Source: Acaryochloris marina MBIC11017 (GTDB lineage Bacteria; Cyanobacteriota; Cyanobacteriia; Thermosynechococcales; Thermosynechococcaceae). From it: a stretch of DNA of 32,000 nt. The stretch spans positions 480,001 to 512,000 of the forward strand of contig NC_009925.1 of NCBI RefSeq assembly GCF_000018105.1. The letters run 5' to 3'. Made by a program: the position numbers and the translations under genes. Positions 2,042 to 19,590 of this stretch are shown piece after piece; position 1 is the first letter of the stretch, and the number at the start of each line of letters is the position of its first letter. Under the pieces are notes generated by a model that saw only the letters and a program-made list of their open reading frames with translations, did no database searches and was not told the DNA's origin.

Positions 2042-2047
2042 TATTTA
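2042..2047. repeat. Target-site duplication of inner IS, left copy (TATTTA)
   Basis: The same hexamer is at 3745-3750. Removing the IS plus one copy restores the outer ORF in frame. Confidence 0.75.
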
Positions 2048-5409: not shown

Positions 5410-5863
5410 CCGTTCGGTTTTTAGTTGCCCAAAAGACTTTATGAACTTCTTCAACTGCTGCTAGCAACTCCTCTGCATGCTGGAGATTGACCTCCACCTT
5501 GCAAGAAGAACAAAGCTTAGCTGCTTTCCAAAACATATCGTGCAGATTGGGATACTGCTCTAGGTGCTGAGGCTTAAAATAGTCCGTCCACAGGATTAAA
5601 ATTTCTTCTTTAGCCTTTTGAGCCTGCTCTTCTTTAATTTGGATATATCGCGACATCGTATTCAGATAAGTCGCCATAGCCTGCGGGTTTTGATCGGCTG
5701 GTGGTTGCAGATCCAAAATCTTACGTGTCATCGACACTACCGCTTCGGTATAAATTCTGGCTGTCGCTGGATCATATACCCCACAGGGACCATCACAGTG
5801 AGCGTGAGCAACAGGAGTCGGGAACCAACGCTTAATTAGAGTCTTAATTTGTCGCAGAACCAT
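5384..5863 (-). CDS. sodN: Nickel superoxide dismutase precursor
   Basis: The nickel-hook motif HCDGPCGVYDP follows a 21-aa leader (MVLRQIKTLIKRWFPTPVAHA). ATG at 5861-5863. The gene is adjacent to sodX. Confidence 0.95.
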   Translation of the reverse strand: MVLRQIKTLIKRWFPTPVAHAHCDGPCGVYDPATARIYTEAVVSMTRKILDLQPPADQNPQAMATYLNTMSRYIQIKEEQAQKAKEEILILWTDYFKPQHLEQYPNLHDMFWKAAKLCSSCKVEVNLQHAEELLAAVEEVHKVFWATKNRTDVSWYKAS

Positions 5864-6978: not shown

Positions 6979-7485
6979 GTGCTAACGCTTCACCCCCATC
7001 AAATGGATCAGATTTATGACCATGCCCAGGACTGCTATCCCGAAGAGTGCTGCGGGCTAATGCTTGGGAAAATCCTAGAACCAGATGCTCAATTAGAAAA
7101 GAAACTGTTTGAACTCTATCCTCTAGATAATGCTTGGGAGCAAGCCGAATCATCTATACGAATAGAAGAGTCAGGAACACCGTTAACCGCAACCCGCCGC
7201 TATTGGATTGCCCCTCAAGATTTATTTAACGCTCAGAAATACGCACGCACACAGGGGTGGGATATTATAGGGGTCTACCACTCACATCCCGATCACGAAG
7301 CCGTGCCTTCTGAATGCGATCGCAAATGGGCTTGGCCCCAATATTCCTATGTGATAGTTGCCGTCAAAAACGGTGTACCCCACGACTTTCGCAATTGGAT
7401 ATTGGATGACCAGCAGCAATTTCGAGCAGAACCAGTAACGGTTGTGGATGATGTGGTCCCGTCAACCCTTGAAACAGATATTTAG
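6979..7485 (+). CDS. JAB/MPN (Mov34) family metalloprotease
   Basis: JAMM motif: E in YPEECCGLMLG, then HSHPDHEAVPSECD (H-x-H-x7-S-xx-D). The start is GTG at 6979; the segment LTLHPHQMDQIYDHA fits the usual N-terminus. An alternative ATG is at 7003. Confidence 0.85.
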   Translation: MLTLHPHQMDQIYDHAQDCYPEECCGLMLGKILEPDAQLEKKLFELYPLDNAWEQAESSIRIEESGTPLTATRRYWIAPQDLFNAQKYARTQGWDIIGVYHSHPDHEAVPSECDRKWAWPQYSYVIVAVKNGVPHDFRNWILDDQQQFRAEPVTVVDDVVPSTLETDI

Positions 7486-7511
7486 AAACCTCATACATCT
7501 TTCCTTTAAGG

Positions 7512-8693
7512 ATGTCCGCCATGCTTAATCCGAATTTGGACCAGATTCAGCTCAATAAAGAAGAATATGAGCGGTTCTCTCGCCACCTCATTTTGCCGGA
7601 GGTGGGCCTAGAGGGACAAAAACGCTTAAAAGCCGCTAGCATCCTTTGTGTTGGTACCGGAGGCTTAGGGTCACCGTTATTACTCTATTTGGCCGCCGCT
7701 GGAGTTGGCCGTTTGGGCATTGTCGATGCCGATGTGGTCGATAGCTCTAACCTCCAACGCCAGGTGATTCACGGTACCTCTTGGGTGGGCAAGCCTAAGA
7801 TCGAATCCGCTAAAAATCGAATTCATGAGATCAACCCGCTCTGTCAGGTGGACCTGTATAACACCTGGCTCACCTCAGAGAACGCCCTAGAAATTGCTGA
7901 ACCTTATGACATTGTTATTGACGGTACGGACAATTTCCCGACTCGGTATCTGGTCAACGATGCCTGCGTCTTGTTAGATAAGCCCAATGTGTATGGGTCG
8001 ATCTACCGCTTTGAAGGCCAAGCCACTGTATTTAATTACGAGGGTGGTCCCAACTATCGGGATTTGTATCCAGAACCCCCACCTCCTGGACTGGTGCCCT
8101 CTTGTGCTGAAGGGGGTGTTCTAGGGATATTGCCAGGTATTATTGGTATTATTCAAGCCACCGAAGCGATTAAGATTATTTTGGGCCAGGGCACAACGTT
8201 AAGTGGCCGTTTACTGCTCTTTAACTCCCTTGACATGAAGTTTCGAGAGTTAAAGCTCAGACCCAACCCAGAGCGTCCTGTGATCGAAAAGCTGGTGGAT
8301 TACCAAGAGTTCTGTGGTATTCCTCAAGCCCAAGCAGCCGAAGCGGAGCAAAAAGCCAATATGGAAGAAATGACCGTTCAAGATCTCAAGCAACTGCTCG
8401 ATAGCGGTGCGGATGATTTTGTCCTCTTGGATGTGCGTAATCCCCATGAATATGAGATTGCCCGCATCCCTGGCTCAGTCTTGATCCCCTTGTCTGAGAT
8501 TGAGAGTGGCGAAGCCATTCCCAAAGTCAAAGAGCTGCTGAATGGCCACCGCCTGATTGCTCACTGCAAGATGGGGGGACGCTCGGCTAAGGCCCTGGGC
8601 TTCCTCCAAGAAGCAGGGATTTCAGGCACCAATGTGACCGGCGGAATCACGGCCTGGAGCCGTGAAATCGATTCTTCTGTACCTGAATACTAA
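7512..8693 (+). CDS. moeB: MoeB/ThiF-type adenylyltransferase with C-terminal rhodanese domain (MoeZ-like sulfur-carrier-activating E1)
   Basis: Nucleotide loop GTGGLGSP, RQV... motif, active-site region PSCAEGGVLG, and rhodanese loop HCKMGGRS. The start is ATG 7512, or ATG 7521 which has better AAGGA spacing. Confidence 0.9.
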   Translation: MSAMLNPNLDQIQLNKEEYERFSRHLILPEVGLEGQKRLKAASILCVGTGGLGSPLLLYLAAAGVGRLGIVDADVVDSSNLQRQVIHGTSWVGKPKIESAKNRIHEINPLCQVDLYNTWLTSENALEIAEPYDIVIDGTDNFPTRYLVNDACVLLDKPNVYGSIYRFEGQATVFNYEGGPNYRDLYPEPPPPGLVPSCAEGGVLGILPGIIGIIQATEAIKIILGQGTTLSGRLLLFNSLDMKFRELKLRPNPERPVIEKLVDYQEFCGIPQAQAAEAEQKANMEEMTVQDLKQLLDSGADDFVLLDVRNPHEYEIARIPGSVLIPLSEIESGEAIPKVKELLNGHRLIAHCKMGGRSAKALGFLQEAGISGTNVTGGITAWSREIDSSVPEY

Positions 8694-8755: not shown

Positions 8756-9385
8756 CTAGCGCTGTTGTAGGTTGGTGGCTAGGATCGCAGCTTGAGTGCG
8801 ATCACGCACATTTAACCGTTTCAAAATACTATTGACGTGGTTTTTGACCGTCCGTTCAGAAATATACAGGGCCTCAGCAATTTCTCGATTGCTCTGGCCC
8901 TCTGCGATTAAAGCCAAAACTTCCGTCTCTCGGGGCGTCAGTTCGGCCAATTCGGGCGGTTCTTCCACCGTTGGCGTTGCCGTGATCATCTTCTCAAACA
9001 AACCAGGGCCAAAGTGAGTGTACCCTTTGTGAACCGCTCGAATGGCCTCTGCTAATTCATCAGAGGGGGTATCCTTGAGCAGATAGCCCTTGGCCCCTAA
9101 GCGCATAGCTTGAGAGACATAGTCCTCATCATCGAACGTGGTTAAGACCAATATATTGATTTGAGGAGCCTGCTGCCGGATGGCTTGGGTCGCAGCAACT
9201 CCATCCATCACCGGCATACGCATATCCATCAGGATAATATCGGGCTGGATTTCCAAAGCTTTCTCAAGGGCAACTTGACCGTTCTCTGCCTCACCCACGA
9301 CTTCTAAATCGGGTTTGGTGTTGAGCAGACTGGAGAGCCCTTCCCGCACAATCCCTTGATCATCTACCAACATCACTCGAATCAT
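8756..9385 (-). CDS. NarL/LuxR-family response regulator
   Basis: Receiver domain (VDDQ, DMRMPVMDG, KGYLLK) plus LuxR HTH (LTPRETEVLALIAEGQSNREIAEALYISERTVKNHV). ATG at 9383-9385 overlaps the kinase stop (TAATG). Confidence 0.9.
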   Translation of the reverse strand: MIRVMLVDDQGIVREGLSSLLNTKPDLEVVGEAENGQVALEKALEIQPDIILMDMRMPVMDGVAATQAIRQQAPQINILVLTTFDDEDYVSQAMRLGAKGYLLKDTPSDELAEAIRAVHKGYTHFGPGLFEKMITATPTVEEPPELAELTPRETEVLALIAEGQSNREIAEALYISERTVKNHVNSILKRLNVRDRTQAAILATNLQQR

Positions 9386-10653
9386 TATTCTTCTCCTAAT
9401 CGAGGAATCTTGATCTGAATATGGCAGCCTGTTTGAGGTTGGCTCCAGAGTTCGAATAGGCCGCCCAAGGCTACTGTCCGTTCCTGCATCCCTTGGAGAC
9501 CAAAGCCTGTTGTATTTTTCTCTGGCAGAAACCCTTTGCCATTGTCAGAAATGTTGAGGGACAGTTCCATTTCTTGCTCCGTCAACTCAATCGTAACTTG
9601 GGTCGCTTCGCTGTGTTTTGAAACATTAGTGAGGGCTTCTTGCACTAAACGATAGAGGGCTGCAGCCATTTCTCGAGGGACTGGCATCTCAAGGTGGGTA
9701 GAGAATTGGACCTGAATCGATGTGGTTCGTTCAAACTCTTGGGTTAGGTGGGATAGCGCTTGGGACAAGGATTGACCTTGTAGGGGGTTATTCCGCAAGG
9801 TGGCAACGGTATGGCGGACATTTTGAAGAGCCTCTTTCCCCAAAGATCGCGCTTTCGCCAGGTGATCTGTGGCTTTGGCCCGATCAGAGGCCATCCATAC
9901 ATCCACATTCTCCAGCTGAATACTTTGAGCCGTGAGGGAATGGCCAACGGAATCATGCATTTCCCGGGCAATTCGGTTCCGCTCCTGTAGAGTGGCTTGA
10001 TTTTCGATCATTAGGGCATATTGCCGCAGGCGTTGGTTCGCAGCTGCTAATTCTGTCCGACTCTGACGCTCAGTCAAAAGCGCCCCTACCATCAGGAAGA
10101 CAAAGACCAAGACTAACCCAAATAAAAGTGCACTTCTGATCTGCAAGCTCGCCAGTAATTCTTGGGGCAGTCCTCTGCTCCGCCAAGGCGGTGGAGGCCC
10201 TAACCTGGGAAATGGACGCATCCGCTGGGCCCCCGTCATTAAGCGGACAAGAAAAGAGCCATAGGCAACAGAGGCTGCTATCAATCGCTGCCGACAAGGA
10301 AACAGTAAGCAGGCTCGAATCACCACAATTAAGAGCATCGGGGTGAAGAAGTCTCGAAACCGCCCTCCCATAAACACTGTTGCCCAACAGAGCAGAAAGC
10401 CCAAACAGGTATACAGCACTTTCACCTTTTGAGATTGATGGATGGGGAGTTTAAGGCCTAAACCCGCTAATGCCAGAATACTCAGGAAGATGCCCAAGGG
10501 AAACCTTAACGCTCCCCTTGGCGTAAAGTGGGGCAGGAGAAAATGGTGGCGAGGAAAAGGTACAAACAACGTTAATAGAGCAACTCCCAACAAAATCCAT
10601 TCCAAATACAGCAGTAAGTGAAATGGATGGTTGGAACGAAACAACCGAGACAT
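9385..10653 (-). CDS. Sensor histidine kinase (HisKA_3 / NarX-DesK type) with multi-TM N-terminal sensor
   Basis: H-box MHDSVGHSLTA and ATPase region (DNGKGF, GFGLQGMQERT). The N-terminal ~190 aa consist of hydrophobic segments. Confidence 0.85.
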   Translation of the reverse strand: MSRLFRSNHPFHLLLYLEWILLGVALLTLFVPFPRHHFLLPHFTPRGALRFPLGIFLSILALAGLGLKLPIHQSQKVKVLYTCLGFLLCWATVFMGGRFRDFFTPMLLIVVIRACLLFPCRQRLIAASVAYGSFLVRLMTGAQRMRPFPRLGPPPPWRSRGLPQELLASLQIRSALLFGLVLVFVFLMVGALLTERQSRTELAAANQRLRQYALMIENQATLQERNRIAREMHDSVGHSLTAQSIQLENVDVWMASDRAKATDHLAKARSLGKEALQNVRHTVATLRNNPLQGQSLSQALSHLTQEFERTTSIQVQFSTHLEMPVPREMAAALYRLVQEALTNVSKHSEATQVTIELTEQEMELSLNISDNGKGFLPEKNTTGFGLQGMQERTVALGGLFELWSQPQTGCHIQIKIPRLGEE

Positions 10654-11327
10654 ATAGGCTCCCAGTCCAGGAATGGATTTACCAGGCCGCTAGGGCTCTG
10701 ATGTTCTCCCACTATAGGCGACGGTTTCTAGGTTGGTTTGTCTCCCAGCGCTTCTTGGGCTTAAGCTACATCCTTTGTCTCCCAGAATACAAGTTGATAG
10801 AGCAAGGGGGACTATATCTGTTAGAAAAGAGATCTTAACGGTCAATGTGAATGTGTTCTTGGCCTCATATAAAAAAATTCGATATGGGGTGTAAAACATC
10901 TATGGAATTTCTAAAAAATAGTTAACCTTTACCCCCTGCACACTTTGAAGTATGAGGAAAACATTTAATTCTACAGTTATCTGTTCGATTGATAATGATC
11001 ACTTCTGAACTGTTGGCAACCCGTCAATATCCTTTCCTTTCTCGATAGTGATCAACCTCGAATCCTCTTGACTGTTCAATTTTTTTTCATAAAGGACTAT
11101 ACTGATGCAAAGGTTAGTGATTGTTGTGAATTCAATAATTAATTAATATTTTTTGGTCTATAAAAATATTAGTTCTTCTCAAGATCTATTCAGGTTCTAT
11201 CAAAGAAAATTTTCGCAGTAATTGAATCAGTTGATCGTATTGCTGTAATGTCCTCTCGCAGAGTGAGGGGTCTATCAGTAACCAAGGTAATTCGTTCATC
11301 TTTTGGCGACTTTGACGATTGATCATC

Positions 11328-11963
11328 ATGGCTCCTTCCTCTGTTCACCGCCAAATTCAGATTGTGTTGAAGTGGGTGATTGATCGCACCGTTGCTTTGT
11401 TGGCGCTAATCCTGCTTACTCCGGTCTTGGGGATGATTGCGATCGCAATCTGTATCAAGATGGGTTGGCCCCCCTGGTTTACCCAACCTCGCCCTGGTAA
11501 AAATGGTCAAATTTTTACCTTCTATAAATTCCGGACCATGACTAATCAGCTGGATGGCAATGGCCAGCTACTGCCGGATGAACAGCGATTGACGCCCTTT
11601 GGCCAGTTTATCCGTAAAACCAGTTTGGACGAGCTGCCTCAATTATGGAATGTTCTGCTGGGTCATATGAGTCTTGTGGGGCCTCGCCCCTTAATTGTCG
11701 AGTATCTTGATCGCTATACTCCAGAACAAAATCGCCGCCATGAAGTATTACCGGGGATTACAGGGCTAGCCCAAATTAATGGCCGCAACGCCATTAGTTG
11801 GGAATCTAAATTTGAAATGGATGTTTGGTACATCGACCACTGGTCTCTATGGCTTGACTGTAAAATCTTGGCCCTGACTGTGTGGAAAGTTTTGAAGCGA
11901 GATGGCATTAACCAAGAGGGCTTTGCGACCTCAGAAGAGTTTATGGGGACCCTAGATCCATGA
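11328..11963 (+). CDS. Small monotopic phosphoglycosyl transferase (bacterial sugar transferase family, PglC/EpsL-like)
   Basis: Motifs KWVIDRTVALLALILLTPV (re-entrant helix), FTQPRPGKNGQIFTFYKFRTM, SLDELPQLWNVLLGHMSLVGPRP and PGITGLAQINGR. The ORF-track start 11319 is a TTG; the ATG is at 11328. The stop overlaps the next start (ATGA, 11960-11963). Confidence 0.9.
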   Translation: MAPSSVHRQIQIVLKWVIDRTVALLALILLTPVLGMIAIAICIKMGWPPWFTQPRPGKNGQIFTFYKFRTMTNQLDGNGQLLPDEQRLTPFGQFIRKTSLDELPQLWNVLLGHMSLVGPRPLIVEYLDRYTPEQNRRHEVLPGITGLAQINGRNAISWESKFEMDVWYIDHWSLWLDCKILALTVWKVLKRDGINQEGFATSEEFMGTLDP

Positions 11964-12880
11964 GGCCTCAAGCCCTATCCACCATGCAATGGGAGCCTCT
12001 GGAGCAATCCTTAAGTGCCCAGCAACGAGCTCTGCTACCCACGGACCAAGATATTGCTTTCTATCGTCAGCATGGCTGGTTTGTTACTCCACCTGTTATC
12101 TCGGATGACATTATAGAGCAAGCTATTGCGGGAGCAGAACGCTACTATCAGGGGGAGCGAGATGCGGTTCTTCCCGTCAACGAAGGTTTCAGTGATTGGC
12201 AGCCCAGGGATGGTTTGGACCTGGTGCGCAATAACGAGTTTGTATCTCTACAAAGTCAAGCCCTGAGACAACTGGCACTCCAGCCGGTGGTGGGAGCAAT
12301 TGCTGCAAAATTAGCAGGTACTCAACAAATCCGACTTCTGGATGATCAACTGGTTTACAAGCCCCCTCAAGATCACACTGCCCAAACGAGCGTCGGTTGG
12401 CATGCGGATCGGGCCTACTGGGCCAACTGCACCTCAGATCAGTTGCTGACTGCTTGGATCCCTTTTCATGATTGTGATATTGATATGGGGCCGTTAGTTG
12501 TTATTGATGGTAGTCATCAATGGTCAGGCTTAGAGCATTTGCGAGGATTTCATCGGACAGACCTAACTCAGCTATCGGCGCAACTCCAACAGATGGGGAT
12601 CGACCATTCGATCAAAGAAATTCCTCTCGCCCTACGGAAAGGCCAAGTCAGCTTCCATAACTGTTGGACCATCCATGGCAGCTACCCAAACCGTAGTCAA
12701 CGAACCCGACTTGCGATCGCAGTACATCTTCAAGATGCAGCCAACCACTATCGCCCCTACCAGAATGACCAAGGTCAAGCCATTCATATGTTTGACGAAC
12801 AGTTGTGTAGAACCCTCCCCAACGGCGATCCAGACTTTAGTGACCCGAGTGTTTTTCCAAAACTATGGTCAGAACCTTAA
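11960..12880 (+). CDS. PhyH-family Fe(II)/2-oxoglutarate-dependent dioxygenase
   Basis: H-x-D in VGWHADRAYW, a distal His in WTIHGSYPNRS, and a PhyH-like N-terminal region (FYRQHGWFV). It is translationally coupled on both sides. Confidence 0.7.
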   Translation: MRPQALSTMQWEPLEQSLSAQQRALLPTDQDIAFYRQHGWFVTPPVISDDIIEQAIAGAERYYQGERDAVLPVNEGFSDWQPRDGLDLVRNNEFVSLQSQALRQLALQPVVGAIAAKLAGTQQIRLLDDQLVYKPPQDHTAQTSVGWHADRAYWANCTSDQLLTAWIPFHDCDIDMGPLVVIDGSHQWSGLEHLRGFHRTDLTQLSAQLQQMGIDHSIKEIPLALRKGQVSFHNCWTIHGSYPNRSQRTRLAIAVHLQDAANHYRPYQNDQGQAIHMFDEQLCRTLPNGDPDFSDPSVFPKLWSEP

Positions 12881-12886
12881 ACAGTA

Positions 12887-13978
12887 ATGAAAAGCAAAGT
12901 ATTGGATTGGCGCGATCCCTTATGGTCAGACCTGCTGACTCACCTGTCTCACGACATTTACCACTTACCTGAATATCTGTATTGTGAGGCCCTGAGAACC
13001 CAAAGCATTCCAGAAGCAATCCTAATTACAGAGGGGCAAAAAGTCTGCCTAATTCCCTATCTACGACGGTCTTGCAATTTCATTCCAACAGCATCGTCCC
13101 CTACTAATATCTATGACATCACATCACCCAATGGGTATTCAGGATTTTTACTCAATCCAGCAGCCCTAGACGATTCAGCATTTGGCTTCCATGCTTGGCA
13201 GCAATTTCTTGACTTAGGAAAAGAACAGGGAATTTGCTCAGCGTTTCTTCGTCTTCACCCTAGTCTTAATACCATTCATCCCCAAGGGATAAATAATATC
13301 CTCGTCAAAAAAGTGGGGCATACGGTCTCCATTAACTTAGGGCTTTCAGAATCAGACCTCTGGAGTCATACCCATAAAAGCCAGCGAAACAAAATTAACC
13401 GAGGGAAACGACTGGGGTTAGTGGCAAAGATCAAGCCATTTTCTGAATACATCAATGAATTCTGCAACATCTATGAAGCTACGATGCAGCGGGTTGAAGC
13501 TGAGACCAGCTTTTTTTCATTTAATCGAGATTACTTTTACCTACTCCAAAAGCATCTTGGTCATAAACTATTCGTTTGTATTGTTGAATACCAAGATGAA
13601 ATTATTTCTGCTGGACTCTATTCGGAATGTTCGGGTATTGTCCAAGGACTATTAGGAGGGACAACCCCTGAAGGGCTAAAACTTTCTCCCACAAGCCTAG
13701 AGTTTTATCAAACGAGTCTATGGGCAAAGCAGCGGGGGAATACAATCCTTCATTTAGGCGGTGGAGTCGGTTGTTCTGAAGATGGTCTTTATCAATACAA
13801 AGCAAACTTTTCGAAGCAAAGGCATGAGTTTTATACCGCATCTATCATTATTAAGCCGCTACAATATAAACTGCTCCTTGAATCCCATTCAAAAGCGCAT
13901 AACATTGATCTTGACCATTTAAACTCTATTCAGTTTTTCCCAGCTTACCGATATAGACCCAATCCCAGTGAGTTTTAG
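12887..13978 (+). CDS. FemABX-fold / GNAT (Acetyltransf_6-like) transferase, paralogue 1
   Basis: Block pattern resembles FemX-type enzymes: HKSQRNKINRGKR, YEATMQR, EYQDEIISAGLY, LWAKQRG...LHLGGGVG, GLYQYKANFS. The ATG is 6 nt after the preceding stop. Confidence 0.65.
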   Translation: MKSKVLDWRDPLWSDLLTHLSHDIYHLPEYLYCEALRTQSIPEAILITEGQKVCLIPYLRRSCNFIPTASSPTNIYDITSPNGYSGFLLNPAALDDSAFGFHAWQQFLDLGKEQGICSAFLRLHPSLNTIHPQGINNILVKKVGHTVSINLGLSESDLWSHTHKSQRNKINRGKRLGLVAKIKPFSEYINEFCNIYEATMQRVEAETSFFSFNRDYFYLLQKHLGHKLFVCIVEYQDEIISAGLYSECSGIVQGLLGGTTPEGLKLSPTSLEFYQTSLWAKQRGNTILHLGGGVGCSEDGLYQYKANFSKQRHEFYTASIIIKPLQYKLLLESHSKAHNIDLDHLNSIQFFPAYRYRPNPSEF

Positions 13979-14031
13979 AGATTAATCATTTTTTACCCAG
14001 TCTGAAAGATAAGTCATAGGTAAAATCGAAA

Positions 14032-15108
14032 ATGGATGTGCAGATACTTGCATTAGATGATCCTCGCTGGCTCCAAGTTCTTGATGGTATTCGACATGAT
14101 GTTTATCACTTGCCTACCTACGTTTCCATTGAATCCAAACGTTTAAAGGCTCCTGCAGAAGCGATTGTGGTTCAAGACAAAAACAAGATACTTTTTTTGC
14201 CTTACTTACTTCGGTCCTGTAAAGATGTTTGCTCTGACCATCTAAAAGATAAAGAGATACTCGATATTATTTCTCCCTATGGTTATTCAGGAATCGCCTT
14301 GAGTCCAGAAGCAATTGGAGACCCAATATTTATCCAATCATCACTCCAAGAGAGCATTAAAGCCTTCAAAGATAAAAACATTTGTTCAGCCTTCTTTCGG
14401 CTTCACCCGATTTTAAGCTCCCAGTATATCGAGCATCTTGATTCCCCTACGGCAACCCCAGACGGTGTAACCGTTTCAGTTGATTTATTGCAGCCAGAGT
14501 CAAAGATTTGGGCTCACACCAGAAAAGGGCATCAAAGTACTATTAACAAGTGCAAACGATTGGGACTGCAAGCCAGAATTGTTCCTTACGCTGAGAGTAT
14601 TGAGGTCTTTACGTCTATTTACACCGAGACGATGAACCGGGTTTCAGCCACTCAATCCTATTACTTTAATCAAGACTATTTTGAAAACCTGCTCAATTTA
14701 GGTGACAAGCTACACTGCTGTATCGTCGAAAATGCTGACCAAATTGTTGCCGCTAGCTTATTTTTTGAATGTTGTGGCATTGTTCAAGCCCACCTCGGTG
14801 GAACCCGTACGGCGTTTATGCCCCAGTCTCCTTTTAGCTTGCTGCTTCATCATATGCGCCTCTGGGCAAAGGAGCAGGGAAATGAATTTCTACACCTAGG
14901 TGGGGGGGTGGGCGGATCGCAAGAGGATCGGTTATTTAAATTTAAGTCGGGCTTTTCTAAGCAGCAGCATGATTTTTACACCCTCAGGTTGATCGTCAAT
15001 CCTGAAGTCTATGCTGAATTGCTTCAACATCGGGCGCAAGCTATAGATGTACCAGTTGAGCAATTACAGCAATCCACCTTTTTTCCGGCATATCGGACAG
15101 CCTCCTAA
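14032..15108 (+). CDS. FemABX-fold / GNAT (Acetyltransf_6-like) transferase, paralogue 2
   Basis: It shares blocks with 12887-13978: H D(I/V)YHLP, SP(N/Y)GYSG, ICSAF(L/F)RLHP, LHLGGGVG, F(K/S)FKSGFSKQQH, FFPAYR. Confidence 0.65.
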   Translation: MDVQILALDDPRWLQVLDGIRHDVYHLPTYVSIESKRLKAPAEAIVVQDKNKILFLPYLLRSCKDVCSDHLKDKEILDIISPYGYSGIALSPEAIGDPIFIQSSLQESIKAFKDKNICSAFFRLHPILSSQYIEHLDSPTATPDGVTVSVDLLQPESKIWAHTRKGHQSTINKCKRLGLQARIVPYAESIEVFTSIYTETMNRVSATQSYYFNQDYFENLLNLGDKLHCCIVENADQIVAASLFFECCGIVQAHLGGTRTAFMPQSPFSLLLHHMRLWAKEQGNEFLHLGGGVGGSQEDRLFKFKSGFSKQQHDFYTLRLIVNPEVYAELLQHRAQAIDVPVEQLQQSTFFPAYRTAS

Positions 15109-15143
15109 CTGTGGGAATCGCTCCCCAAGAAGAGGTGATGTTA

Positions 15144-17804
15144 TTAATGGACTTGAATTAGTTGAGGATTGTTGAGGATAAAGACTTCAGCTGCGTCACT
15201 AGACAGAGGTTGGGAGAAATAGTTCCCTTGAGCTTTCTGACACAATAGCTTCTTTAAGTAATTGAGTTGCTGTTTGGATTCTACGCCCTCAGAAATGGCA
15301 TCCATATTTAATTGACTGGCTAAATTAATGATGGTTTCAATAATTTCTTGATTTTCTCCCTGGGCACCAATGCGAGTAATAAAAGACTGATCAATCTTGA
15401 TGGTATTGAAGGGAAATAAATGAAGATAACTCAGGCTGGAATAGCCGGTACCAAAATCATCAATACTCAGTTGAATGCCTCTTTCCTTTAATTGATTTAA
15501 AATTACTTTTAATTCGATCACATTCTCCATCAAGATGCTTTCAGTCAGCTCCAAAGACAACTGGTGGCGGTTTAATCCCGATTGCTCTAAGGCTCTATCA
15601 ACCTTCGTCAGCAGGTTTGGATCTTTAAGCTGCTTGATCGACATGTTTACACTGATGGTGTATTTCACTGCCGATGGATAGGTTTGTAGCCAAGTTGCCA
15701 TCTGTTGACACGCTGATTGCAAGATCCATTCCCCTAACGGGATAATTAAGCCCGTTTCTTCGGCAATGGGTATAAATTCCGTTGGTGGAATAAATCCCCG
15801 TTGGGGATGAGGCCAGCGTCCTAAAGCTTCAAATCCTGATAATTTGCCCGTTTGGATATTGACGATGGGCTGATAAAACACCTGGAGCTGTTGATTGGCA
15901 ATGGCTTGTCGCAAATCATTTTCTAATTGCAGCCGATCTAAGGCTTGCGTATACATCCGCTCATTAAAGATTTCAAAGCAAGCTTTTCCCCGATTTTTTG
16001 CCCGATACATGGCGATATCCGCATCCCTGAGAATGTCCGTGGCCTGACTGTAGTCCGGCGAACTGAGGGCAATGCCCACACTGGCTGAAATAAAGACCTG
16101 GCGATTACTCAAGTCAATCGGAGCGCTCAACTCTTGCACAATCCGATCGGCTACTCGCACGGCATCGTTGACTTCCTCAATGGGTTCGAGAAGAATAACA
16201 AACTCATCTCCACCTAATCGAGCCACAATATCAGTGGCTCTTACTAGGGAATGAAGCTGATGTGCGATCGCACCCAGTAACTGATCTCCCACTTCATGGC
16301 CCAGGCTATCATTGACGATCTTGAACCGATCTAAATCAATAAACAGTACGGCAAATAAATATTGTGAATGCCGCTGGGTCTGCTTCACTGCACGTTCCAA
16401 TTGCTCCATAAAAAAAGCGCGATTGGGAAATCCCGTCAACGGATCGTGAAGGGCGAGATGCTTAAACTGTTCTTCTGCCCGTTGCCGTTCTGCTACTTCT
16501 TTCGTTAAAGCCAGATTGGCCGCTTCCAAATCAGAGAACGTGGCCTGTAGTTTCTCCGCCATACGGTTAAAGGATTGTTGGAGAACCCCAATCTCCTTAA
16601 ATCCTTTGACGGCCACCGTTTGATCAAATTGCCCCGAGGATATGGCTTGACTTGCTTGACTAAAACGGAGAATCGGTCTGGCAATCCAACTGGCGGTACA
16701 CACCCCCAAATAAATAGCACACCCCAACGCTAGGAAACACAGCAATAGGGTCGTTCGTGTGTTGGCATCGATCTGAGCCATAAAGCTGGATTCGGGGATA
16801 ACCAACACACTGAGCCAATCTAATCCATGCTGATCCTGCAACGGCGTCACCTGCAGGAAATATCGCTGCCCCTTAATCGAGAATTGGATTTGGCGTCGAG
16901 CATTAATTTGCTGAAGCCCTCCAGCTTGCTTTGCTAAATAGGCTGCAGTGGCCTGGACAACACCATCTTCACTATGGGTTGCCATCAATCGGCCGGGTTT
17001 ATGATTGCGCCAAACAAATGGCAGCTCATTGGACGATGTCGCAACAATGTCACCGGAGCGTTCCAGAATAAATGTCCGACTGGAGTCACATAGACTCAAC
17101 TCTTTGAGAAAATCACTAATTTGGGCCAGGGAGAGATCTGTCGCTAAAATGCCCTGGAATTTTCCTTGAGCATCATAATAGGGCTGACCCAGGGTGATAG
17201 CTAAGGTGGGCGGGCTGACCCAGGGATAGATCTCTGTCCAGGCCGGTTTGTCGGCCTGTTGAGGCACAATGTACCAGGGACGCTGACGAGCATCAAAGTT
17301 AGGAGAGATTTTAAGATACTGCTTGCGATCTCCTTTTGTATCAATACTGTAGGTCTGCAGTGCTCCCGTCTCTTCTGTCACCTGGTAGGTGAGCGTCCCA
17401 TCATCGTTGACCGCTAAGCCTACAAACTCCCCTTGCAAATTGCCAAATTGAATATAGCTAATCAACTTAAACACTTGGCTCTGACGCCAAAAATGGCGTT
17501 CCATACTCTGGAGATCATTCAGTTGGAGCTGCCCCATATCTAAGGCATCTTCATTGAGTTGATTGACTTGATGAGGGGTCAATAGATAAATATTGAGTCG
17601 CTCTGAAATCCGATCTCCCGTTTCTGACATCAACTGATTGGCTAAGTCTTCTATCGCCTCTTCGCCATTACGCAAAGACAAGTAGCCCACCAGACCCACA
17701 GAAACCAGTAGCTGCAGAACGAATAGAACAATCAGTGTAAAACGTAGCGGTAACGCTCGATGGAGTGGAAAACGAATCTTTTTCCAGCGTGATAACTGTT
17801 CCAT
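15144..17804 (-). CDS. Membrane sensor: Cache-like periplasmic domain, HAMP, GGDEF, EAL (c-di-GMP turnover)
   Basis: N-terminal TM, about 300-aa extracytoplasmic region, second TM, then HAMP (IARPILRFSQASQAISSGQFDQ...FNRMAEKLQ). GGDEF is intact (RLGGDEFVILL). The EAL domain has GFEALGRW, ...ELTES..., DDFGTGYSSL. Confidence 0.9.
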   Translation of the reverse strand: MEQLSRWKKIRFPLHRALPLRFTLIVLFVLQLLVSVGLVGYLSLRNGEEAIEDLANQLMSETGDRISERLNIYLLTPHQVNQLNEDALDMGQLQLNDLQSMERHFWRQSQVFKLISYIQFGNLQGEFVGLAVNDDGTLTYQVTEETGALQTYSIDTKGDRKQYLKISPNFDARQRPWYIVPQQADKPAWTEIYPWVSPPTLAITLGQPYYDAQGKFQGILATDLSLAQISDFLKELSLCDSSRTFILERSGDIVATSSNELPFVWRNHKPGRLMATHSEDGVVQATAAYLAKQAGGLQQINARRQIQFSIKGQRYFLQVTPLQDQHGLDWLSVLVIPESSFMAQIDANTRTTLLLCFLALGCAIYLGVCTASWIARPILRFSQASQAISSGQFDQTVAVKGFKEIGVLQQSFNRMAEKLQATFSDLEAANLALTKEVAERQRAEEQFKHLALHDPLTGFPNRAFFMEQLERAVKQTQRHSQYLFAVLFIDLDRFKIVNDSLGHEVGDQLLGAIAHQLHSLVRATDIVARLGGDEFVILLEPIEEVNDAVRVADRIVQELSAPIDLSNRQVFISASVGIALSSPDYSQATDILRDADIAMYRAKNRGKACFEIFNERMYTQALDRLQLENDLRQAIANQQLQVFYQPIVNIQTGKLSGFEALGRWPHPQRGFIPPTEFIPIAEETGLIIPLGEWILQSACQQMATWLQTYPSAVKYTISVNMSIKQLKDPNLLTKVDRALEQSGLNRHQLSLELTESILMENVIELKVILNQLKERGIQLSIDDFGTGYSSLSYLHLFPFNTIKIDQSFITRIGAQGENQEIIETIINLASQLNMDAISEGVESKQQLNYLKKLLCQKAQGNYFSQPLSSDAAEVFILNNPQLIQVH

Positions 17805-18259
17805 GTCATCAATGCAACCCTTTTACTGCATTTGTTAGCTAGAAAATTGCTAATACAGTGATTTTATGGTTATACCACCATTAATTATTCATTAGTCAGA
17901 GAGGTTAAGTATTAACTGAATAAATTTATCAAGCTCAACCGATGGAGATGCTTTGAGGGCGAGGTTACATGGGCTGAATAAGACTGCCTTGATGGGGAAC
18001 ATCTTGCCAATAAAAGTATTCAAGATTGGACAATAGCGATTAAATCACCGACTTGTAAAACCCTCAAATTCCTCGTTAATTGAATAAATCAATAACTAAA
18101 GCTTAAAAAAACAATATTTTCTCATTAGTTTGAATTGAAATATTGAAGAAGCGTTCACGAGGGAACAGACTAATTTTTGTCGATTGTATTTGAAGGGGTT
18201 GAAGAACGCACAACGCTAAAGGGTGCCAAACTGCTTGATGGTTCACAATCAAGCTATAG

Positions 18260-18479: not shown

Positions 18480-19586
18480 ATGACGGAATTGATGACAGAC
18501 TCGACCGAATCGACCACCGCAACCCCCTGTCCAGTCAATTCCTATAATGAATGGGATCCACTAGAAGAGGTGATTGTCGGTCACTTAGAAGGGGCGATTA
18601 TTCCTCCCTATCACGTGACCGTGACTTACAATATCCCCCCCAGTACCGCCCGGTTATATCGGATTTTTGCGGGACAAAAGTACCCTGGGTTCTTGCTCAA
18701 AAAAGCTCAGCGGGAACTGGATGAATTTATTCACATCCTAGAATCTGAAGGGGTGGTTGTTCGACGTCCTGAAGTAATTAAAGGCACCAAACGCTATAAG
18801 GCCTTGGATTGGTCTTCTAAGGGATTTTGTACCGCCTGTCCTCGCGATGGTTTTATGGTGCTGGGCGACGAAATCATTGAAACTCCAATGGCATGGCGGT
18901 GCCGCTATTTTGAAACCCATGCTTACCGTCCGCTCTTTAAGGAATATTTTGCTCAAGGGGCTCGTTGGACTTCAGCACCGAAGCCGGAGTTAACGGACGA
19001 TCTATTCGATTATTCCTTTAAGCCCCCCGCTAAGGGAGAACCCATTCGTTATGTGATCAATGAGTTTGAACCCGTCTTTGATGCTGCTGATTTTGTCCGC
19101 TGTGGCCGCGATTTATTTGTGACCCAAAGTAATGTCACTAATCAAGCAGGAATTACTTGGCTGCGGCGTCACCTGGGTGATCGCTATCAAATTCACGAGA
19201 TCAATAGCTCCTGTCCCACCCCCATGCACATTGACTCTACCTTTATTCCCTTGGCACCGGGGAAAGCCTTGATTAATCCTGAGTATATTGATGTGGATAA
19301 ACTCCCTAAAGCCCTTAAATCTTGGGATATGCTAGTTCCCCCCGAACCAGATCCGATCAAGGGCGTTCCCTCCATGTGTAGTAAGTGGATTAGTCTCAAC
19401 GTTCTCATGCTGGATGAGAAACGGGTGATCGTCGAAGAAGATCAAACCTCATTGATCGCAGCTTTTAAAGATTGGGGATTTGAACCGATTAAATGTCCCT
19501 TTATCAACTTTGCGCCCTTTGGGGGGTCTTTCCACTGCGCCACTTTGGATATTCGTCGGCGTGGTACTTTGCAGTCCTACTGTTAG
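18480..19586 (+). CDS. Amidinotransferase of the glycine amidinotransferase (AGAT) / StrB1 family
   Basis: The C-terminus FGGSFHCATLDIRRRGTLQSY closely resembles the catalytic-Cys region and C-terminus I recall for AGAT. A catalytic-His candidate is in TPMHIDSTF. SD AGGTGAGGA is at 18465-18473. Confidence 0.85.
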   Translation: MTELMTDSTESTTATPCPVNSYNEWDPLEEVIVGHLEGAIIPPYHVTVTYNIPPSTARLYRIFAGQKYPGFLLKKAQRELDEFIHILESEGVVVRRPEVIKGTKRYKALDWSSKGFCTACPRDGFMVLGDEIIETPMAWRCRYFETHAYRPLFKEYFAQGARWTSAPKPELTDDLFDYSFKPPAKGEPIRYVINEFEPVFDAADFVRCGRDLFVTQSNVTNQAGITWLRRHLGDRYQIHEINSSCPTPMHIDSTFIPLAPGKALINPEYIDVDKLPKALKSWDMLVPPEPDPIKGVPSMCSKWISLNVLMLDEKRVIVEEDQTSLIAAFKDWGFEPIKCPFINFAPFGGSFHCATLDIRRRGTLQSYC

Positions 19587-19590
19587 GCCC

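Follow-up and report, generated by a model that had tools for sequence, protein, structure and literature searches.

Within a 32-kb stretch of Acaryochloris DNA, called the window here and used for the numbering of all positions, four closely packed genes encode a small phosphoglycosyl transferase (PGT), a PhyH-family dioxygenase and two FemX-like transferases, Fem1 and Fem2. This quartet raises the question of what its products build together and whether they can do so on their own. The original prediction proposed a minimal pathway to an aminoacylated, possibly hydroxylated sugar on polyprenyl-PP. Cyanobacterial loci with relatives of the two Fem genes (FEM genes) were found in 425 cases, of which 80 were examined; individual loci are designated by L numbers.

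Organization and integrity of the locus

The four family assignments of the original prediction proved correct by Pfam HMM scores (Table 1). The ORF listing places all four frames on one strand, the first as 11319..11963 and the others as tabulated, and direct reading of the sequence reproduced the junctions first described: an ATGA stop/start overlap at 11960-11963 and gaps of 6 nt (12881-12886) and 53 nt (13979-14031). The quartet ends 35 nt (15109-15143) from the stop of the convergent gene, again as reported. For the PGT gene, the stop at 11963 stands, but TTG 11319 merely marks where the mechanical ORF opens. The most likely start is ATG 11328, where homology begins, and the L081 and L082 orthologues are annotated as 211-aa proteins; the table gives this most likely extent.

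Table 1. Features of the quartet locus and its immediate neighbors
Feature	Position	Strand	Basis
Leader	10654..11327		Between divergent histidine-kinase gene and PGT; 38% GC
PGT, PglC-type small monotopic, 211 aa	11328..11963	+	Bac_transf and PglC alignment
PhyH-family Fe(II)/2-oxoglutarate dioxygenase, 306 aa	11960..12880	+	PhyH 80.8 bits; overlaps PGT stop (ATGA)
Fem1, FemX-fold double-GNAT transferase, 363 aa	12887..13978	+	FemAB/Acetyltransf_6 and AF2 fold
Fem2, FemX-fold transferase, 358 aa	14032..15108	+	FemAB 32.9 bits; phmmer to FemX
HisKA_3 histidine kinase and NarL/LuxR response regulator	8756..10653	-	Pfam; context only; divergent
Cache-HAMP-GGDEF-EAL c-di-GMP enzyme	15144..17804	-	Pfam; context only; convergent

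The 665-bp intergenic region upstream of the quartet (10654-11318) is AT-rich as noted earlier, with 38.0% GC against 46.9% in the window. The leader, which presumably contains the operon promoter and 5′ UTR, shares 78-81% identity with its counterpart in L082, and its final ~60 nt are conserved in L001 too. No Rfam family matched the leader, and its consensus promoter matches showed no excess over chance. The divergent HisKA_3/NarL-LuxR pair is a candidate regulator of the module: it also flanks the quartet in L082, and in Scytonema (L038) a divergent pair with 49% and 63% identity lies upstream of a full cluster. On the other side, orthologues of the GGDEF/EAL gene (85-93% identical) occupy the same position in L001, L081 and L082, and in every Acaryochloris-clade locus the module is bounded on the right by this conserved gene.

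A Pfam scan of the 20 other ORFs of at least 110 aa confirmed that the window holds no glycosyltransferase, Wzx, Wzy or ABC exporter, and it contained neither Wzc nor a sugar aminotransferase; a 4,6-dehydratase is likewise absent from the 32 kb. A DDE transposase is located ~8 kb upstream of the quartet.

All four reading frames are intact. Compared with three Acaryochloris-clade orthologous loci, including the compact L082, the four genes show dN/dS values of 0.04-0.15, similar to the 0.05 of the neighboring GGDEF/EAL gene. The arrangement is therefore real and maintained, and not a matter of chance ORFs.

PGT and PhyH

The PGT reaches 218.8 bits (5e-65) with the Pfam family Bac_transf and aligns over 195 aa without gaps to PglC of Campylobacter concisus (8g1n; 232 bits, 58% identity). 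It carries the Asp101-Glu102 dyad, Pro119-Arg-Pro121, the GxLLP motif (G79-Q-L-L-P83) and all five residues of the aromatic box (Y126/Y130/W158/F162/F205), which together constitute the UDP-diNAcBac fingerprint described for PglC-type PGTs (PMC10186338). Against a bacillosamine-type reading counts that the Glu117-Lys196 salt bridge of PglC is Glu/Glu in the quartet PGT.

The PhyH protein matches its Pfam family with an E-value of 2e-22, and at least 97% of 42 orthologues retain His148-x-Asp150...His239 and Arg250. Its closest solved relatives are the sugar-modifying SnoK (6e-14) and SnoN, and in 37 of 72 informative loci its gene immediately precedes a FEM gene.

Family, fold and conserved residues of Fem1 and Fem2

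Fem1 (FemAB 26.7 bits, Acetyltransf_6 26.2 bits) and Fem2 (32.9 and 32.4 bits), which are 43% identical to each other (BLASTP, 3e-101), barely exceed the Pfam cut-offs of 24 and 22 bits, and these scores do not discriminate FemAB from Acetyltransf_6/CelD. In Foldseek searches with the AF2 model of Fem1 (pLDDT 88.8), FemX of Weissella viridescens (E 2e-15) was the top PDB fold, followed by Sba18/Sbb17 with bound amino sugar; these, FemA, FemX_Sa and MprF, which also rank at the top, are all aminoacyl-tRNA-dependent. The expected resemblance to FemX and not to ordinary GNATs was thus upheld. The tRNA-binding coiled coil of FemA/MurM, for which the original prediction had suggested a comparison, is absent and the proteins are instead FemX(Weissella)/Sba18-like. 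Lys305 of Fem1, within an F/Y-K-x-x-F motif, aligns with the catalytic Lys305 of FemX, the key reactive residue of that enzyme (PMC12945691). At least 97% of 96 cyanobacterial FEM proteins have this lysine, which is invariant in A1, and both lysine and motif are also retained in FEM-like proteins of four other phyla. For Fem2, phmmer gave a match to FemX (4ii9/1ne9) with the catalytic lysine aligned.

In a neighbor-joining tree calculated without support values, Fem1 is a divergent paralogue on a separate long branch, found in Acaryochloris-clade loci only, and Fem2 belongs to a clade of FEM genes that usually directly follow PhyH. Clade membership in this tree goes with the type of tailoring gene next to FEM (PhyH, methyltransferase or c12), which would be expected if each FEM installs the residue that its neighbor modifies.

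The FEM proteins could also serve the same initiation module as acyl-CoA- or acyl-ACP-dependent double-GNAT N-acyltransferases which add acetyl, hydroxybutyryl or similar groups. Both match Acetyltransf_6 (PF13480) at 26-32 bits, many relatives are labeled GNAT family N-acetyltransferase by NCBI, the conserved glycine-rich loop H289-L-G-G-G-V-G295 could in principle bind the CoA pyrophosphate, and some clusters include a FabH-like gene and further genes for acyl handling. Acetyl-CoA-dependent tandem GNATs do appear in the fold search, but only from rank 29 on and with TM-scores of at most about 0.5, whereas all 28 matches ranked above them are either aminoacyl-tRNA-dependent or of unknown function. 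Considering also that the FemX lysine and its motif persist across phyla, and that the neighboring tailoring genes (N-methyl-, N-formyl- and N-acetyltransferases, hydroxylases, ATP-grasp ligases) fit the modification of an installed amino acid, we regard acyl-CoA or acyl-ACP dependence as unlikely.

The module in cyanobacteria and other phyla

In most of the 80 loci, the module resides inside a canonical Wzx/Wzy cluster, with the usual order PglF-like dehydratase, Wzx, GT4s, Wzy, GT4s, PGT, optional PhyH, one or two FEM genes, tailoring genes, PglE-like aminotransferase and Wzc. Synteny of the quartet in relatives, whose absence would have spoken against the original prediction, was found. A PGT gene lies at most 4 kb upstream of FEM in 61 of 72 informative loci; GT4s, Wzx/MurJ and Wzy also lie upstream of FEM; a DegT aminotransferase follows within 4 kb downstream (58 of 67 loci) and Wzc within 7 kb (45 of 57). 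The PglF-like dehydratase marks the 5′ edge in 7 loci, and ATP-grasp genes come after FEM in at least 10. The cluster aminotransferase of the relatives has C. jejuni PglE as best PDB match (1o61/4ztc, 4e-91), reaches 387 bits against the LegC family model, below its cut-off of 420, and bears the JGI name EpsN.

A representative-based scan of unassigned cluster ORFs detected PglD_N+Hexapep genes in four of the 80 loci (L059, L065, L066 and L078); in L066, a degenerate PGT-PglD-DegT cassette lies beside two PGT-FEM cassettes. Since PglD and FEM occur together in these loci, FEM is no simple replacement of PglD; FEM may have another amine as its target, or PglD may serve to cap the aminoacyl group.

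Similar arrangements exist outside the cyanobacteria. Cetobacterium somerae combines a PglF-like protein, a LegC-family aminotransferase, a small PGT, a FEM-like protein and a GT4; Priestia megaterium a PglF-like protein, an aminotransferase, a PGT, a GNAT, a hypothetical protein, a FEM-like protein and a GT4; and Deinococcus proteolyticus a PGT, a GNAT, DegT and a FEM-like protein.

The compact arrangement within Acaryochloris

In the close Acaryochloris relative L081/L088, the quartet forms one continuous cluster with Wzc, DegT, Wzx, Wzy and four GT4s and shares the right-hand junction with the window. On the left, leftward DegT and Wzc diverge from Wzx-GT4-Wzy-GT4-GT4-GT4; on the right, PhyH2-PGT-PhyH-FEM-FEM-MBL/Rieske converges with GGDEF/EAL. 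Nucleotide homology to the window spans 11352-15122 and 15143-17902; the GT/Wzy block upstream and the MBL-Rieske gene downstream have no counterpart in the window. The L082 locus has the quartet alone between the two-component system and the GGDEF/EAL gene, as in the window, and L090 contains a Wzc-DegT-Wzx-GT4-Wzy block to which the quartet is not adjacent. As L081/L088 retains the full cluster at the same junction and L090 has the block without an adjacent quartet, these sequences indicate that the compact quartet is a derived state within Acaryochloris. When the dehydratase and aminotransferase were searched for elsewhere in the genome, Acaryochloris was absent from 282 plasmid matches and not named among the best 120 of 8000 scored DegT homologues; no Wzy homologue at E<=1e-80 was present on a 6.5-Mb contig.

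A self-contained pathway, as originally predicted, would end with an aminoacylated polyprenyl-PP-sugar or small glycoconjugate and dispense with polymerization and the usual export. The quartet does stand alone in the window and in L082, and is under purifying selection nonetheless. It cannot make its own acceptor, however, because the window encodes neither a 4,6-dehydratase nor an aminotransferase, and in most of the 80 loci, as well as in L081/L088, it sits within full Wzx/Wzy/Wzc clusters that also encode GT4s and a PglE-like aminotransferase. L090 demonstrates that the GT/Wzx/Wzy/DegT/Wzc block can occupy a separate locus, and in cyanobacteria the genes for EPS are often dispersed over the chromosome and other replicons of the genome. 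Self-sufficiency of the quartet is therefore improbable. Even less credence is due to a decaying remnant that yields no product after loss of the remaining cluster: the missing GT/Wzy block and MBL-Rieske gene and the transposase upstream would suit it, but the four intact frames and dN/dS values in the range of the GGDEF/EAL gene, also against compact L082, make it very improbable.

Comparison with characterized systems

The nearest counterpart is the bacillosamine module (PglF-PglE-PglD-PglC of Campylobacter, Neisseria and Bacillus; EpsC-EpsN-EpsM-EpsL in B. subtilis), in which a 4-amino-4,6-dideoxy-HexNAc is made, N-acylated and loaded on polyprenyl phosphate as first sugar. The quartet shares this logic through its PglC-like PGT and its fingerprint, and the clusters of relatives through the PglE/LegC/EpsN-like aminotransferase and the PglF-like dehydratase at their edge. 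It differs in that one or two FemX-fold proteins would take the N-acylation slot of PglD, that a PhyH dioxygenase is added, that Wzx/Wzy/Wzc and not an oligosaccharyltransferase act downstream, and that the window lacks the dehydratase and aminotransferase. A natural precedent for exchanging the N4 acyl group while keeping the remaining pathway is Neisseria PglB2, an ATP-grasp variant giving a glyceramido-acetamido-trideoxyhexose; unlike the Fem proposal, it employs an ATP-grasp domain and glycerate instead of a FemX fold and an amino acid.

Weissella FemX, the UDP-MurNAc-pentapeptide:L-alanine transferase, is the best structural match (TM-score 0.71, target-normalized). Like the Fem proteins it is a soluble double-GNAT enzyme without the FemA coiled coil, with Lys305 and the adjacent Phe aligned, and its acceptor amine is UDP-linked. 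Identity is only about 14%, and the Fem context is polysaccharide instead of peptidoglycan, so that the acceptor would be a sugar amine and not a lysine side chain. That the Fem proteins build peptidoglycan interpeptide bridges is hardly credible: several homologues are annotated 'peptidoglycan bridge formation glycyltransferase FemA/FemB family protein' and fold and lysine are common to FemX, but the scores on the NCBIfam FemX equivalog are 22-27 bits against a cut-off of 500, the FemA-type coiled coil is missing, synteny is strict with PGT, sugar aminotransferase, Wzc and GT4s and absent with mur/pbp genes, and cyanobacterial peptidoglycan is directly cross-linked (A1-gamma type).

Orf11, Sba18 and Sbb17 of streptothricin-type pathways (TM-scores 0.77-0.79, target-normalized) provide the demonstrated transfer from tRNA to an amino-sugar nitrogen, namely the Gly-tRNA-dependent aminoacylation of streptothrisamine (PMC12945691). 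In contrast to the Fem proteins, they are actinomycete secondary-metabolite enzymes of about 285 aa with 13-14% identity and no link to polyprenyl-phosphate glycan assembly. In the type B flagellin locus of C. difficile, a FemAB-like gene (CDR20291_0244) adjoins genes for an ATP-grasp ligase (0245) and an FdtB-like aminotransferase (0247), much as in the cyanobacterial loci; its role is putative, and it resisted mutation (PMC5207246). Unlike the quartet, that locus has soluble GT2 enzymes and no PGT, its product is a protein O-glycan (PMC5207246), and its amino sugar is of the 3-amino type.

The FemAB proteins of PEP-CTERM/XrtA systems (TIGR03019) and CelD/BcsL (PF13480) share a Pfam clan with the Fem proteins and occur in exopolysaccharide loci, their function being unknown. 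Membership in the former family, considered earlier, was refuted: Fem1 reaches 37 bits where 260 are required, Fem2 has no match, and no XrtA/EpsH or PEP-CTERM genes were found in the window or the 80 loci.

Proposed role of the quartet

The gene content and synteny of the quartet, the folds and conserved catalytic residues of its proteins and the purifying selection on its genes together point to an initiation module of the bacillosamine type. In this module, FemX-like transferases that draw on tRNA probably aminoacylate the sugar amino group, in the slot usually filled by PglD. The fold and one conserved lysine suggest aminoacyl-tRNA as donor; the acceptor would be N4 of a 2,4-diamino-2,4,6-trideoxyhexose carried on UDP or polyprenyl-PP. 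The sequence of reactions, the target of PhyH and the supply of the amino sugar by enzymes encoded elsewhere in the genome are likewise put forward as a model.

A PglF-type 4,6-dehydratase and a PglE/LegC-type aminotransferase, cluster-encoded in relatives but not in the window, would first convert UDP-GlcNAc to UDP-4-amino-4,6-dideoxy-GlcNAc. Fem2 would then acylate the amino group with an amino acid from aminoacyl-tRNA, where the classical pathway has the left-handed-beta-helix acetyltransferase PglD. Fem1, the Acaryochloris-specific extra paralogue, may add a second residue, either to the first one at its alpha-amino group, in the way that FemA acts after FemX, or to another amine. Since tRNA delivers only proteinogenic amino acids, any unusual residue must arise after transfer, and PhyH could at this stage hydroxylate the installed residue or the sugar. 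The PGT would move the N-acylated bacillosamine-type sugar 1-phosphate onto polyprenyl phosphate, and its extension, flipping, polymerization and export would fall to glycosyltransferases, Wzx, Wzy and Wzc from other loci. Precedents for single elements are the glycylation of an amino sugar from Gly-tRNA by Orf11/Sba18 (PMC12945691), the peptidylamido sugar attributed to FemAB-like, ATP-grasp and aminotransferase proteins of the C. difficile type B flagellin locus (PMC5207246), and amide-linked Gly, AcGly, Ala and AcSer on E. coli O antigens (PMC7685785).

The searchable literature yielded no description of an aminoacylated polyprenyl-PP-sugar in cyanobacteria, in line with the original prediction, and the literature searched contained no characterization of a FEM-containing initiation module. 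An aminoacylated, possibly hydroxylated, polyprenyl-PP-linked sugar is still the most likely reading of the product, as we infer from the above. The quartet is best explained as a module that starts a Wzx/Wzy-dependent surface polysaccharide of the EPS, O-antigen or capsule type and tailors its first sugar; in this Acaryochloris genome, the module would be separated from the rest of its cluster.

Organization of the four-gene module

The genes for a phosphoglycosyl transferase (PGT), a PhyH protein and two FemX-fold proteins (Fem1 and Fem2) form a module that is detached from the rest of a Wzx/Wzy cluster of a common kind. The original prediction described four tightly packed genes on the same strand, and this layout was confirmed: the first two genes overlap by an ATGA at 11960-11963, 6 nt and 53 nt separate the following ones, and there is a distance of 35 nt to the stop codon of a convergent gene. 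The 665-bp upstream intergenic region is indeed AT-rich (38.0% GC compared to 46.9% for the whole window). The PGT reading frame was called mechanically from a TTG (11319..11963), and its start was corrected; it is most likely the ATG at 11328, since the orthologues are called as 211 aa and homology begins at that codon. The operon structure is deduced from spacing and synteny only, since promoter and terminator counts in a scan of 10600-15300 were no higher than the shuffled expectation. An Rfam scan of 10500-15300, including the 665-bp leader, detected no c-di-GMP or other riboswitch.

The proposed protein families were recovered by Pfam (Bac_transf, 5e-65; PhyH, 2e-22; FemAB and Acetyltransf_6, barely over their cut-offs). 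The claim that the usual polysaccharide machinery is missing from the window also holds: no glycosyltransferase, flippase, polymerase, chain-length regulator, exporter or sugar aminotransferase was found by Pfam among all other ORFs of at least 110 aa, and a Pfam search of the window gave no Hexapep or PglD_N protein.

The two-component pair next to the module may be a dedicated regulator. A counterpart, 49% and 63% identical, is encoded in a Scytonema metagenome-assembled genome (L038), divergent from and upstream of a full cluster whose first gene is PglF-like. Loci of the Rivularia type carry a different, LuxR-type regulator downstream of Wzc. Further genes of the window are included in the table. 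The mobile-element genes (transposase and HTH_Tnp_4 fragment), located 8-10 kb before the module, may have a bearing on local rearrangement. An ORF of 368 aa without Pfam match overlaps by about 100 nt with an esterase gene called from a mechanical TTG; the true start of the latter is probably further downstream, as its counterpart in the Acaryochloris-clade locus L082 is called shorter (336 aa).

Features of the window and of related loci
Feature	Sequence	Coordinates	Strand	Remarks
DDE transposase and HTH_Tnp_4 fragment	window	711-1190 and 2045-3628	-	transposase of 527 aa (DDE_Tnp_1_2 + DUF772)
Nickel superoxide dismutase and S26-type peptidase	window	5023-5863	-	adjoining, sodN/sodX-like pair
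Prok-JAB and ThiF-rhodanese proteins	window	6979-8693	+	adjoining, MoeZ-like sulfur-carrier activating pair
HisKA_3 kinase and NarL-type response regulator	window	8756-10653	-	upstream of module, divergent
PGT	window	11328..11963	+
PhyH	window	11960..12880	+
Fem1	window	12887..13978	+
Fem2	window	14032..15108	+
Cache-HAMP-GGDEF-EAL protein	window			886 aa; downstream of Fem2, convergent
ORF without Pfam match	window	18480-19586	+
Abhydrolase_3 esterase	window	19480-20607	+	mechanical start
HisKA_3/NarL pair	L038	2-1812	-
Second PhyH-like gene	L081 (L088)	7534-8436 (17023-17925)		300 aa
MBL-SCP2-Rieske gene	L081	12233-13789		518 aa
PglE-like aminotransferase	L088	5201-6820	-
PglE-like aminotransferase	L090	5184-6794	-
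Three tandem starter cassettes	L066	7336-16878
Family c12 gene (example)	L032	9107-9973
FEM-family gene	L086	7992-9062		Azospirillum oryzae plasmid

The PGT and PhyH proteins

The single-domain PGT of 211 aa matches the complete Bac_transf profile (PF02397, positions 1-179 of 179) with 218.8 bits at a cut-off of 27, and aligns without gaps over 195 residues to PglC of Campylobacter concisus (232 bits, 58% identity). In an alignment of 74 sequences, comprising 72 cyanobacterial PGTs, the window PGT and C. concisus PglC, the catalytic dyad D101-E102 and the nucleotide-binding motif P119-R120-P121 are invariant (74/74). Small PGTs specific for UDP-diNAcBac carry a fingerprint of a five-residue aromatic box (Y118, Y122, W150, F154 and F197 in C. 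concisus numbering) and a GLLLP loop, which accompany the DE dyad and the PRP motif (PMC10186338). The window PGT has the whole box (Y126, Y130, W158, F162, F205) as well as the loop (G79-Q-L-L-P83), and the five aromatic positions are kept in 64-74 of the 74 sequences. The phmmer score of 232 bits against PglC itself is a proxy for the score of at least 200 on the subgroup HMM of that study. The salt bridge Glu117-Lys196, by which the C-terminal loop of PglC is held, has no equivalent in the window PGT, where Glu125 and Glu204 (11700-11702 and 11937-11939) occupy these positions; most cyanobacterial PGTs in the family alignment are charge-swapped at this bridge, with Arg or Lys at 117 and Glu at 196.

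The PhyH protein scores 80.8 bits on PF05721 (cut-off 22). Its putative metal ligands H148-x-D150 and H239 (2-His-1-carboxylate) and the 2OG-binding R250 are kept in at least 97% of 42 orthologues, and the HxD motif indicates an enzyme of the hydroxylase type; a halogenase is ruled out by this triad. Among its relatives with solved structures, the nearest are SnoK and SnoN, two enzymes that modify an amino sugar; phytanoyl-CoA hydroxylase and MysH come next.

The FEM proteins

Fem1 and Fem2 are paralogues with 43% identity; the best protein match, reported with the Fem-like paralogues, is AM1_0520 of A. marina MBIC11017 (100% identity). Together with their cyanobacterial relatives they constitute a double-GNAT family, here termed FEM. 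Profile scores are low: PF02388 gives 26.7 and 32.9 bits at a cut-off of 24, marginal values with partial coverage that are equalled by PF13480, and the FemX equivalog of NCBIfam gives 22-27 bits compared to 500. The two proteins belong neither to the FemX equivalog nor to the PEP-CTERM/XrtA-associated FemAB family considered in the original prediction; on TIGR03019, Fem1 reaches 37.1 bits at a cut-off of 260 and Fem2 has no match.

An AlphaFold (AF2) model of FEM, built from 25 sequences, is confident (pLDDT 88.8, pTM 0.88). The top PDB match of the predicted fold in Foldseek is FemX of Weissella viridescens, followed by Sba18/Sbb17 and then by FemA, S. aureus FemX and the MprF aminoacyl-phosphatidylglycerol synthases. 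Sba18 and Sbb17 are aminoacyl-tRNA-dependent peptide synthases, whose structures were solved with the amino sugar streptothrisamine. The leading matches are enzymes that depend on aminoacyl-tRNA; tandem GNATs using acyl-CoA appear only from rank 29 on in the search with the model, with lower TM-scores of at most about 0.5. The FemA-type coiled-coil insert is absent from the model, so that the comparison with the tRNA-binding coiled coil of FemX/MurM, proposed as a check of the original prediction, had a negative outcome for the predicted structure.

The key reactive residue of FemX is Lys305 (PMC12945691). It aligns with the lysine of a conserved motif, (D/E)D-x-L-(Y/F)-x-(F/Y)-K-x-x-F, which is Lys305 in Fem1 and the equivalent lysine in Fem2. 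This residue is kept in at least 97% of 96 cyanobacterial FEMs and also in FEM-like proteins of four other phyla (Priestia, Cetobacterium, Deinococcus and Azospirillum). In databases, FEM proteins are named ‘GNAT N-acetyltransferase’ or ‘peptidoglycan bridge formation FemA/FemB’, names that are generic or probably wrong. A role in peptidoglycan bridges was rejected on the basis of the genomic context, which is a polysaccharide cluster and not one of mur genes.

The module in cyanobacterial polysaccharide clusters

One genome per species was scanned with an alignment of FEM homologues, which led to the detection of 425 loci encoding FEM relatives. The best 80 of the 425 were kept with 10-kb flanks and analyzed by tblastn with the window proteins, by clustering of all ORFs and by comparison of the cluster representatives with Pfam and NCBIfam. 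The recurrent gene order is (PglF-like dehydratase) - Wzx/MurJ - several GT4 - Wzy - GT4 - PGT - [c7] - [PhyH] - one or two FEM - [methyltransferase, ATP-grasp, MBL-Rieske or others] - DegT - Wzc, where c7 is an ORF family of the clusters and DegT the cluster aminotransferase. Among loci with enough flank, a PGT lies within 4 kb upstream of FEM in 61 of 72, DegT within 4 kb downstream in 58 of 67 and Wzc within 7 kb downstream in 45 of 57; PhyH is adjacent to FEM in 37 of 72, and 17 of the 80 loci have two FEM genes. A PglF-type dehydratase of about 680 aa is located at the 5′ edge in the seven loci with flanks reaching that far. Synteny of the quartet is thus seen in relatives, where the module is the core of a canonical Wzx/Wzy-dependent cluster, which speaks against the idea of a stand-alone minimal pathway.

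The cluster aminotransferase, present in the relatives only, has C. jejuni PglE as its best PDB match (4e-91), reaches 387 bits with the model of the LegC family and carries the JGI name EpsN. Enzymes of the PglE/LegC/EpsN type make NDP-4-amino-4,6-dideoxy-GlcNAc. The PglF-like, PglE-like and PglC-like set of the full clusters recreates the bacillosamine pathway. The acetyltransferase PglD is usually absent, proteins with PglD_N and Hexapep domains occurring in 4/80 loci, and the element common to the clusters is the FEM gene. Its products take the corresponding slot with a different fold and are not members of the PglD family; they may work like PglD. The genes between PGT and DegT are variable and include PhyH, methyltransferase, formyltransferase, PglD-like acetyltransferase, ATP-grasp, TauD and P450. 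The locus L066 contains, in order, a degenerate PGT-PglD-DegT cassette, a PGT-FEM-methyltransferase cassette and a PGT-PhyH-FEM-DegT cassette, which look like alternative starter modules swapped in. Two or three tandem cassettes of a PGT with tailoring genes are also found in L016 and L069. Such loci suggest that modules for the starter sugar are exchanged like cassettes, which recalls serotype variation.

The joint occurrence of a PglD-like protein and FEM in L059, L065, L066 and L078 makes the proposed site of FEM action less certain. In these loci, the product might plausibly carry an N-acetyl-aminoacyl group by analogy with E. coli O121 and O114, where such a group is present (PMC7685785).

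In a neighbour-joining tree computed without support values, the FEM clades track the adjoining tailoring gene; Fem2 falls into a clade that normally has PhyH directly upstream, and Fem1 forms a long separate Acaryochloris branch in the same tree. Fem1 was apparently inserted between PhyH and Fem2. About 11 loci without PhyH (L007, L028, L030, L032, L068, L074, L077 and others) have directly upstream of FEM a gene of family c12, with products of about 289 aa without Pfam or NCBIfam match. The c12 C-terminus (…SPEDEKLCIFKDGIGF) resembles the FEM catalytic motif, a resemblance at the motif level only, as the comparison with the FEM profile by hhalign was not significant (probability 0.5%).

Origin of the compact arrangement in Acaryochloris

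Judged by gene order and sequence, four related loci show the origin of the compact state. L082 (Fem1 88% identical) has exactly the layout of the window, and in L001 (82%) Fem2 is followed by an additional MBL-SCP2-Rieske gene. The sister cluster L081, extended as L088 (73%), comprises Wzc(-) and DegT(-), then Wzx, GT4, Wzy and three GT4 genes, followed by three small reverse ORFs, a second PhyH-like gene, PGT, PhyH, two FEM genes, MBL-Rieske and GGDEF/EAL(-). In L090, a Wzc-DegT-Wzx-GT4-Wzy-GT4x3 block is followed by unrelated genes and not by the quartet, so a split arrangement does occur naturally. At the nucleotide level, homology of L081 to the window covers 11352-15122 and resumes at 15143, and this break indicates that MBL-Rieske is cleanly absent from the window; everything upstream of the PGT differs between the two.

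The metallo-beta-lactamase, SCP2 and Rieske [2Fe-2S] protein following Fem2 in L001 and L081 belongs to family c24, which follows FEM in 7 other cyanobacterial loci and is absent from the window (15109-15143) and from L082. The second PhyH-like gene, directly upstream of the PGT in L081/L088, is absent from the window as well; its product is very divergent, with no significant similarity to the window PhyH. The DegT of L088 shows 70% identity to the PglE-like DegT of other cyanobacterial clusters. In L088 and L090 this aminotransferase has an N-terminal extension of about 165 aa without Pfam assignment and is transcribed divergently from Wzx, not placed after FEM.

The dN/dS values of all four genes against L082, L001 and L081 range from 0.04 to 0.15, comparable to the neighbouring GGDEF/EAL gene, which argues that the compact quartet is maintained by selection and is not decaying. 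The missing parts of the cluster were sought elsewhere: tblastn of the PglE-like DegT against a plasmid collection matched 282 records, none from Acaryochloris; a DegT protein search gave only heterocystous or filamentous cyanobacteria, about 80% identical, among the 120 matches listed; and no match of the Wzy of the sister cluster lay on a contig with the size of the A. marina chromosome (6.5 Mb). A literature search for the locus tags AM1_0517-0522 returned nothing relevant.

Other phyla and known systems

Annotated records from outside the cyanobacteria have similar gene orders: PglF-like, LegC-family aminotransferase, small PGT, FEM-like and GT4 in Cetobacterium somerae; PglF-like, aminotransferase, PGT, GNAT, hypothetical protein, FEM-like and GT4 in Priestia megaterium; and PGT, GNAT, DegT and FEM-like in Deinococcus proteolyticus. 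A putative substitution of FEM for PglD is thus also seen in these three records. On the Azospirillum oryzae plasmid (L086), a FEM-family protein with 159 bits on the cyanobacterial FEM HMM and the catalytic lysine kept has radical-SAM and carbamoyltransferase genes as neighbours and no polysaccharide cluster, which places the family in another, possibly natural-product, context, too.

The closest system is the bacillosamine module PglFEDC/EpsCNML, which has the logic and the PGT and aminotransferase families in common with the clusters described here but differs in the N-acylating enzyme. The enzymes closest to FEM are FemX of W. viridescens and Orf11/Sba18, the latter being proof that an amino sugar can receive an amino acid from tRNA through an enzyme with the Fem fold (PMC12945691). 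Among glycan loci, the closest precedent is the type B flagellin locus of C. difficile with a FemAB-like gene, an ATP-grasp gene and an aminotransferase gene; it goes with a peptidylamido sugar, and the part of the FemAB-like gene therein is putative (PMC5207246). Our literature searches found no link between aminoacyl-tRNA and bacillosamine, cyanobacteria and bacillosamine, or FemAB and cyanobacterial polysaccharide.

Proposed pathway and implications

The usual lack of PglD, the constancy of FEM, the cassettes of L066 and the non-cyanobacterial records point to a pathway in which FEM would acylate the 4-amino group of UDP-linked (or polyprenyl-PP-linked) 4-amino-4,6-dideoxy-GlcNAc with an amino acid from aminoacyl-tRNA, and the genes between PGT and DegT would tailor the installed residue. 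The FEM clades tracking tailoring genes are loosely in line with this reading. As tRNA delivers proteinogenic residues only, unusual residues would have to arise after transfer. For the window, Fem2 would add the first residue, PhyH would hydroxylate, Fem1 would add the second residue and the PGT would load the sugar onto polyprenyl phosphate; donor, acceptor and order are what we infer here. Overall, we regard this mechanism as more probable than not. From the original interpretation, an aminoacylated first sugar on polyprenyl phosphate is retained as the best-supported product, and the minimal pathway is given up in view of the canonical cluster in relatives.

In summary, many cyanobacteria and at least three other phyla have a starter module of the bacillosamine type in which a predicted FemX-fold enzyme sits in the slot of PglD. 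The novelty lies in this class, as the starter-module logic is familiar and the FemX-fold enzyme is new in this slot; the window itself is less remarkable, being a trimmed copy of a common and widespread module. More tentatively, and with slightly less than even expectation, many cyanobacteria (425 loci) and some Bacillota, Fusobacteriota and Deinococcota might start a surface polysaccharide with a bacillosamine-type sugar, the 4-amino group of which is aminoacylated directly from aminoacyl-tRNA by FemX-like transferases and the residue then tailored by hydroxylation, methylation, formylation, acetylation or ATP-grasp extension. If true, charged tRNA would have a use in glycan assembly beyond peptidoglycan that has so far gone unrecognised, and there would be a genetic basis for the substituents, peptides and amino acids, that have long been described in polysaccharides of bacteria; the Acaryochloris product would bear two residues, of which one is hydroxylated.

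It is well known that amino sugars of O antigens and capsules can carry amide-linked amino acids, and for many of these linkages we know of no assigned transferase. FEM proteins are a candidate enzyme class for such linkages, which would be a more likely role for many genes labelled ‘GNAT N-acetyltransferase’ or ‘peptidoglycan bridge formation FemA/FemB’. If FEM proteins are tRNA-dependent, polysaccharides would join peptidoglycan, lipids and antibiotics as the fourth field in which Fem-type enzymes act, and charged tRNA would feed the surface polysaccharide chemistry of a large and ecologically important phylum, linking translation to the cell surface.
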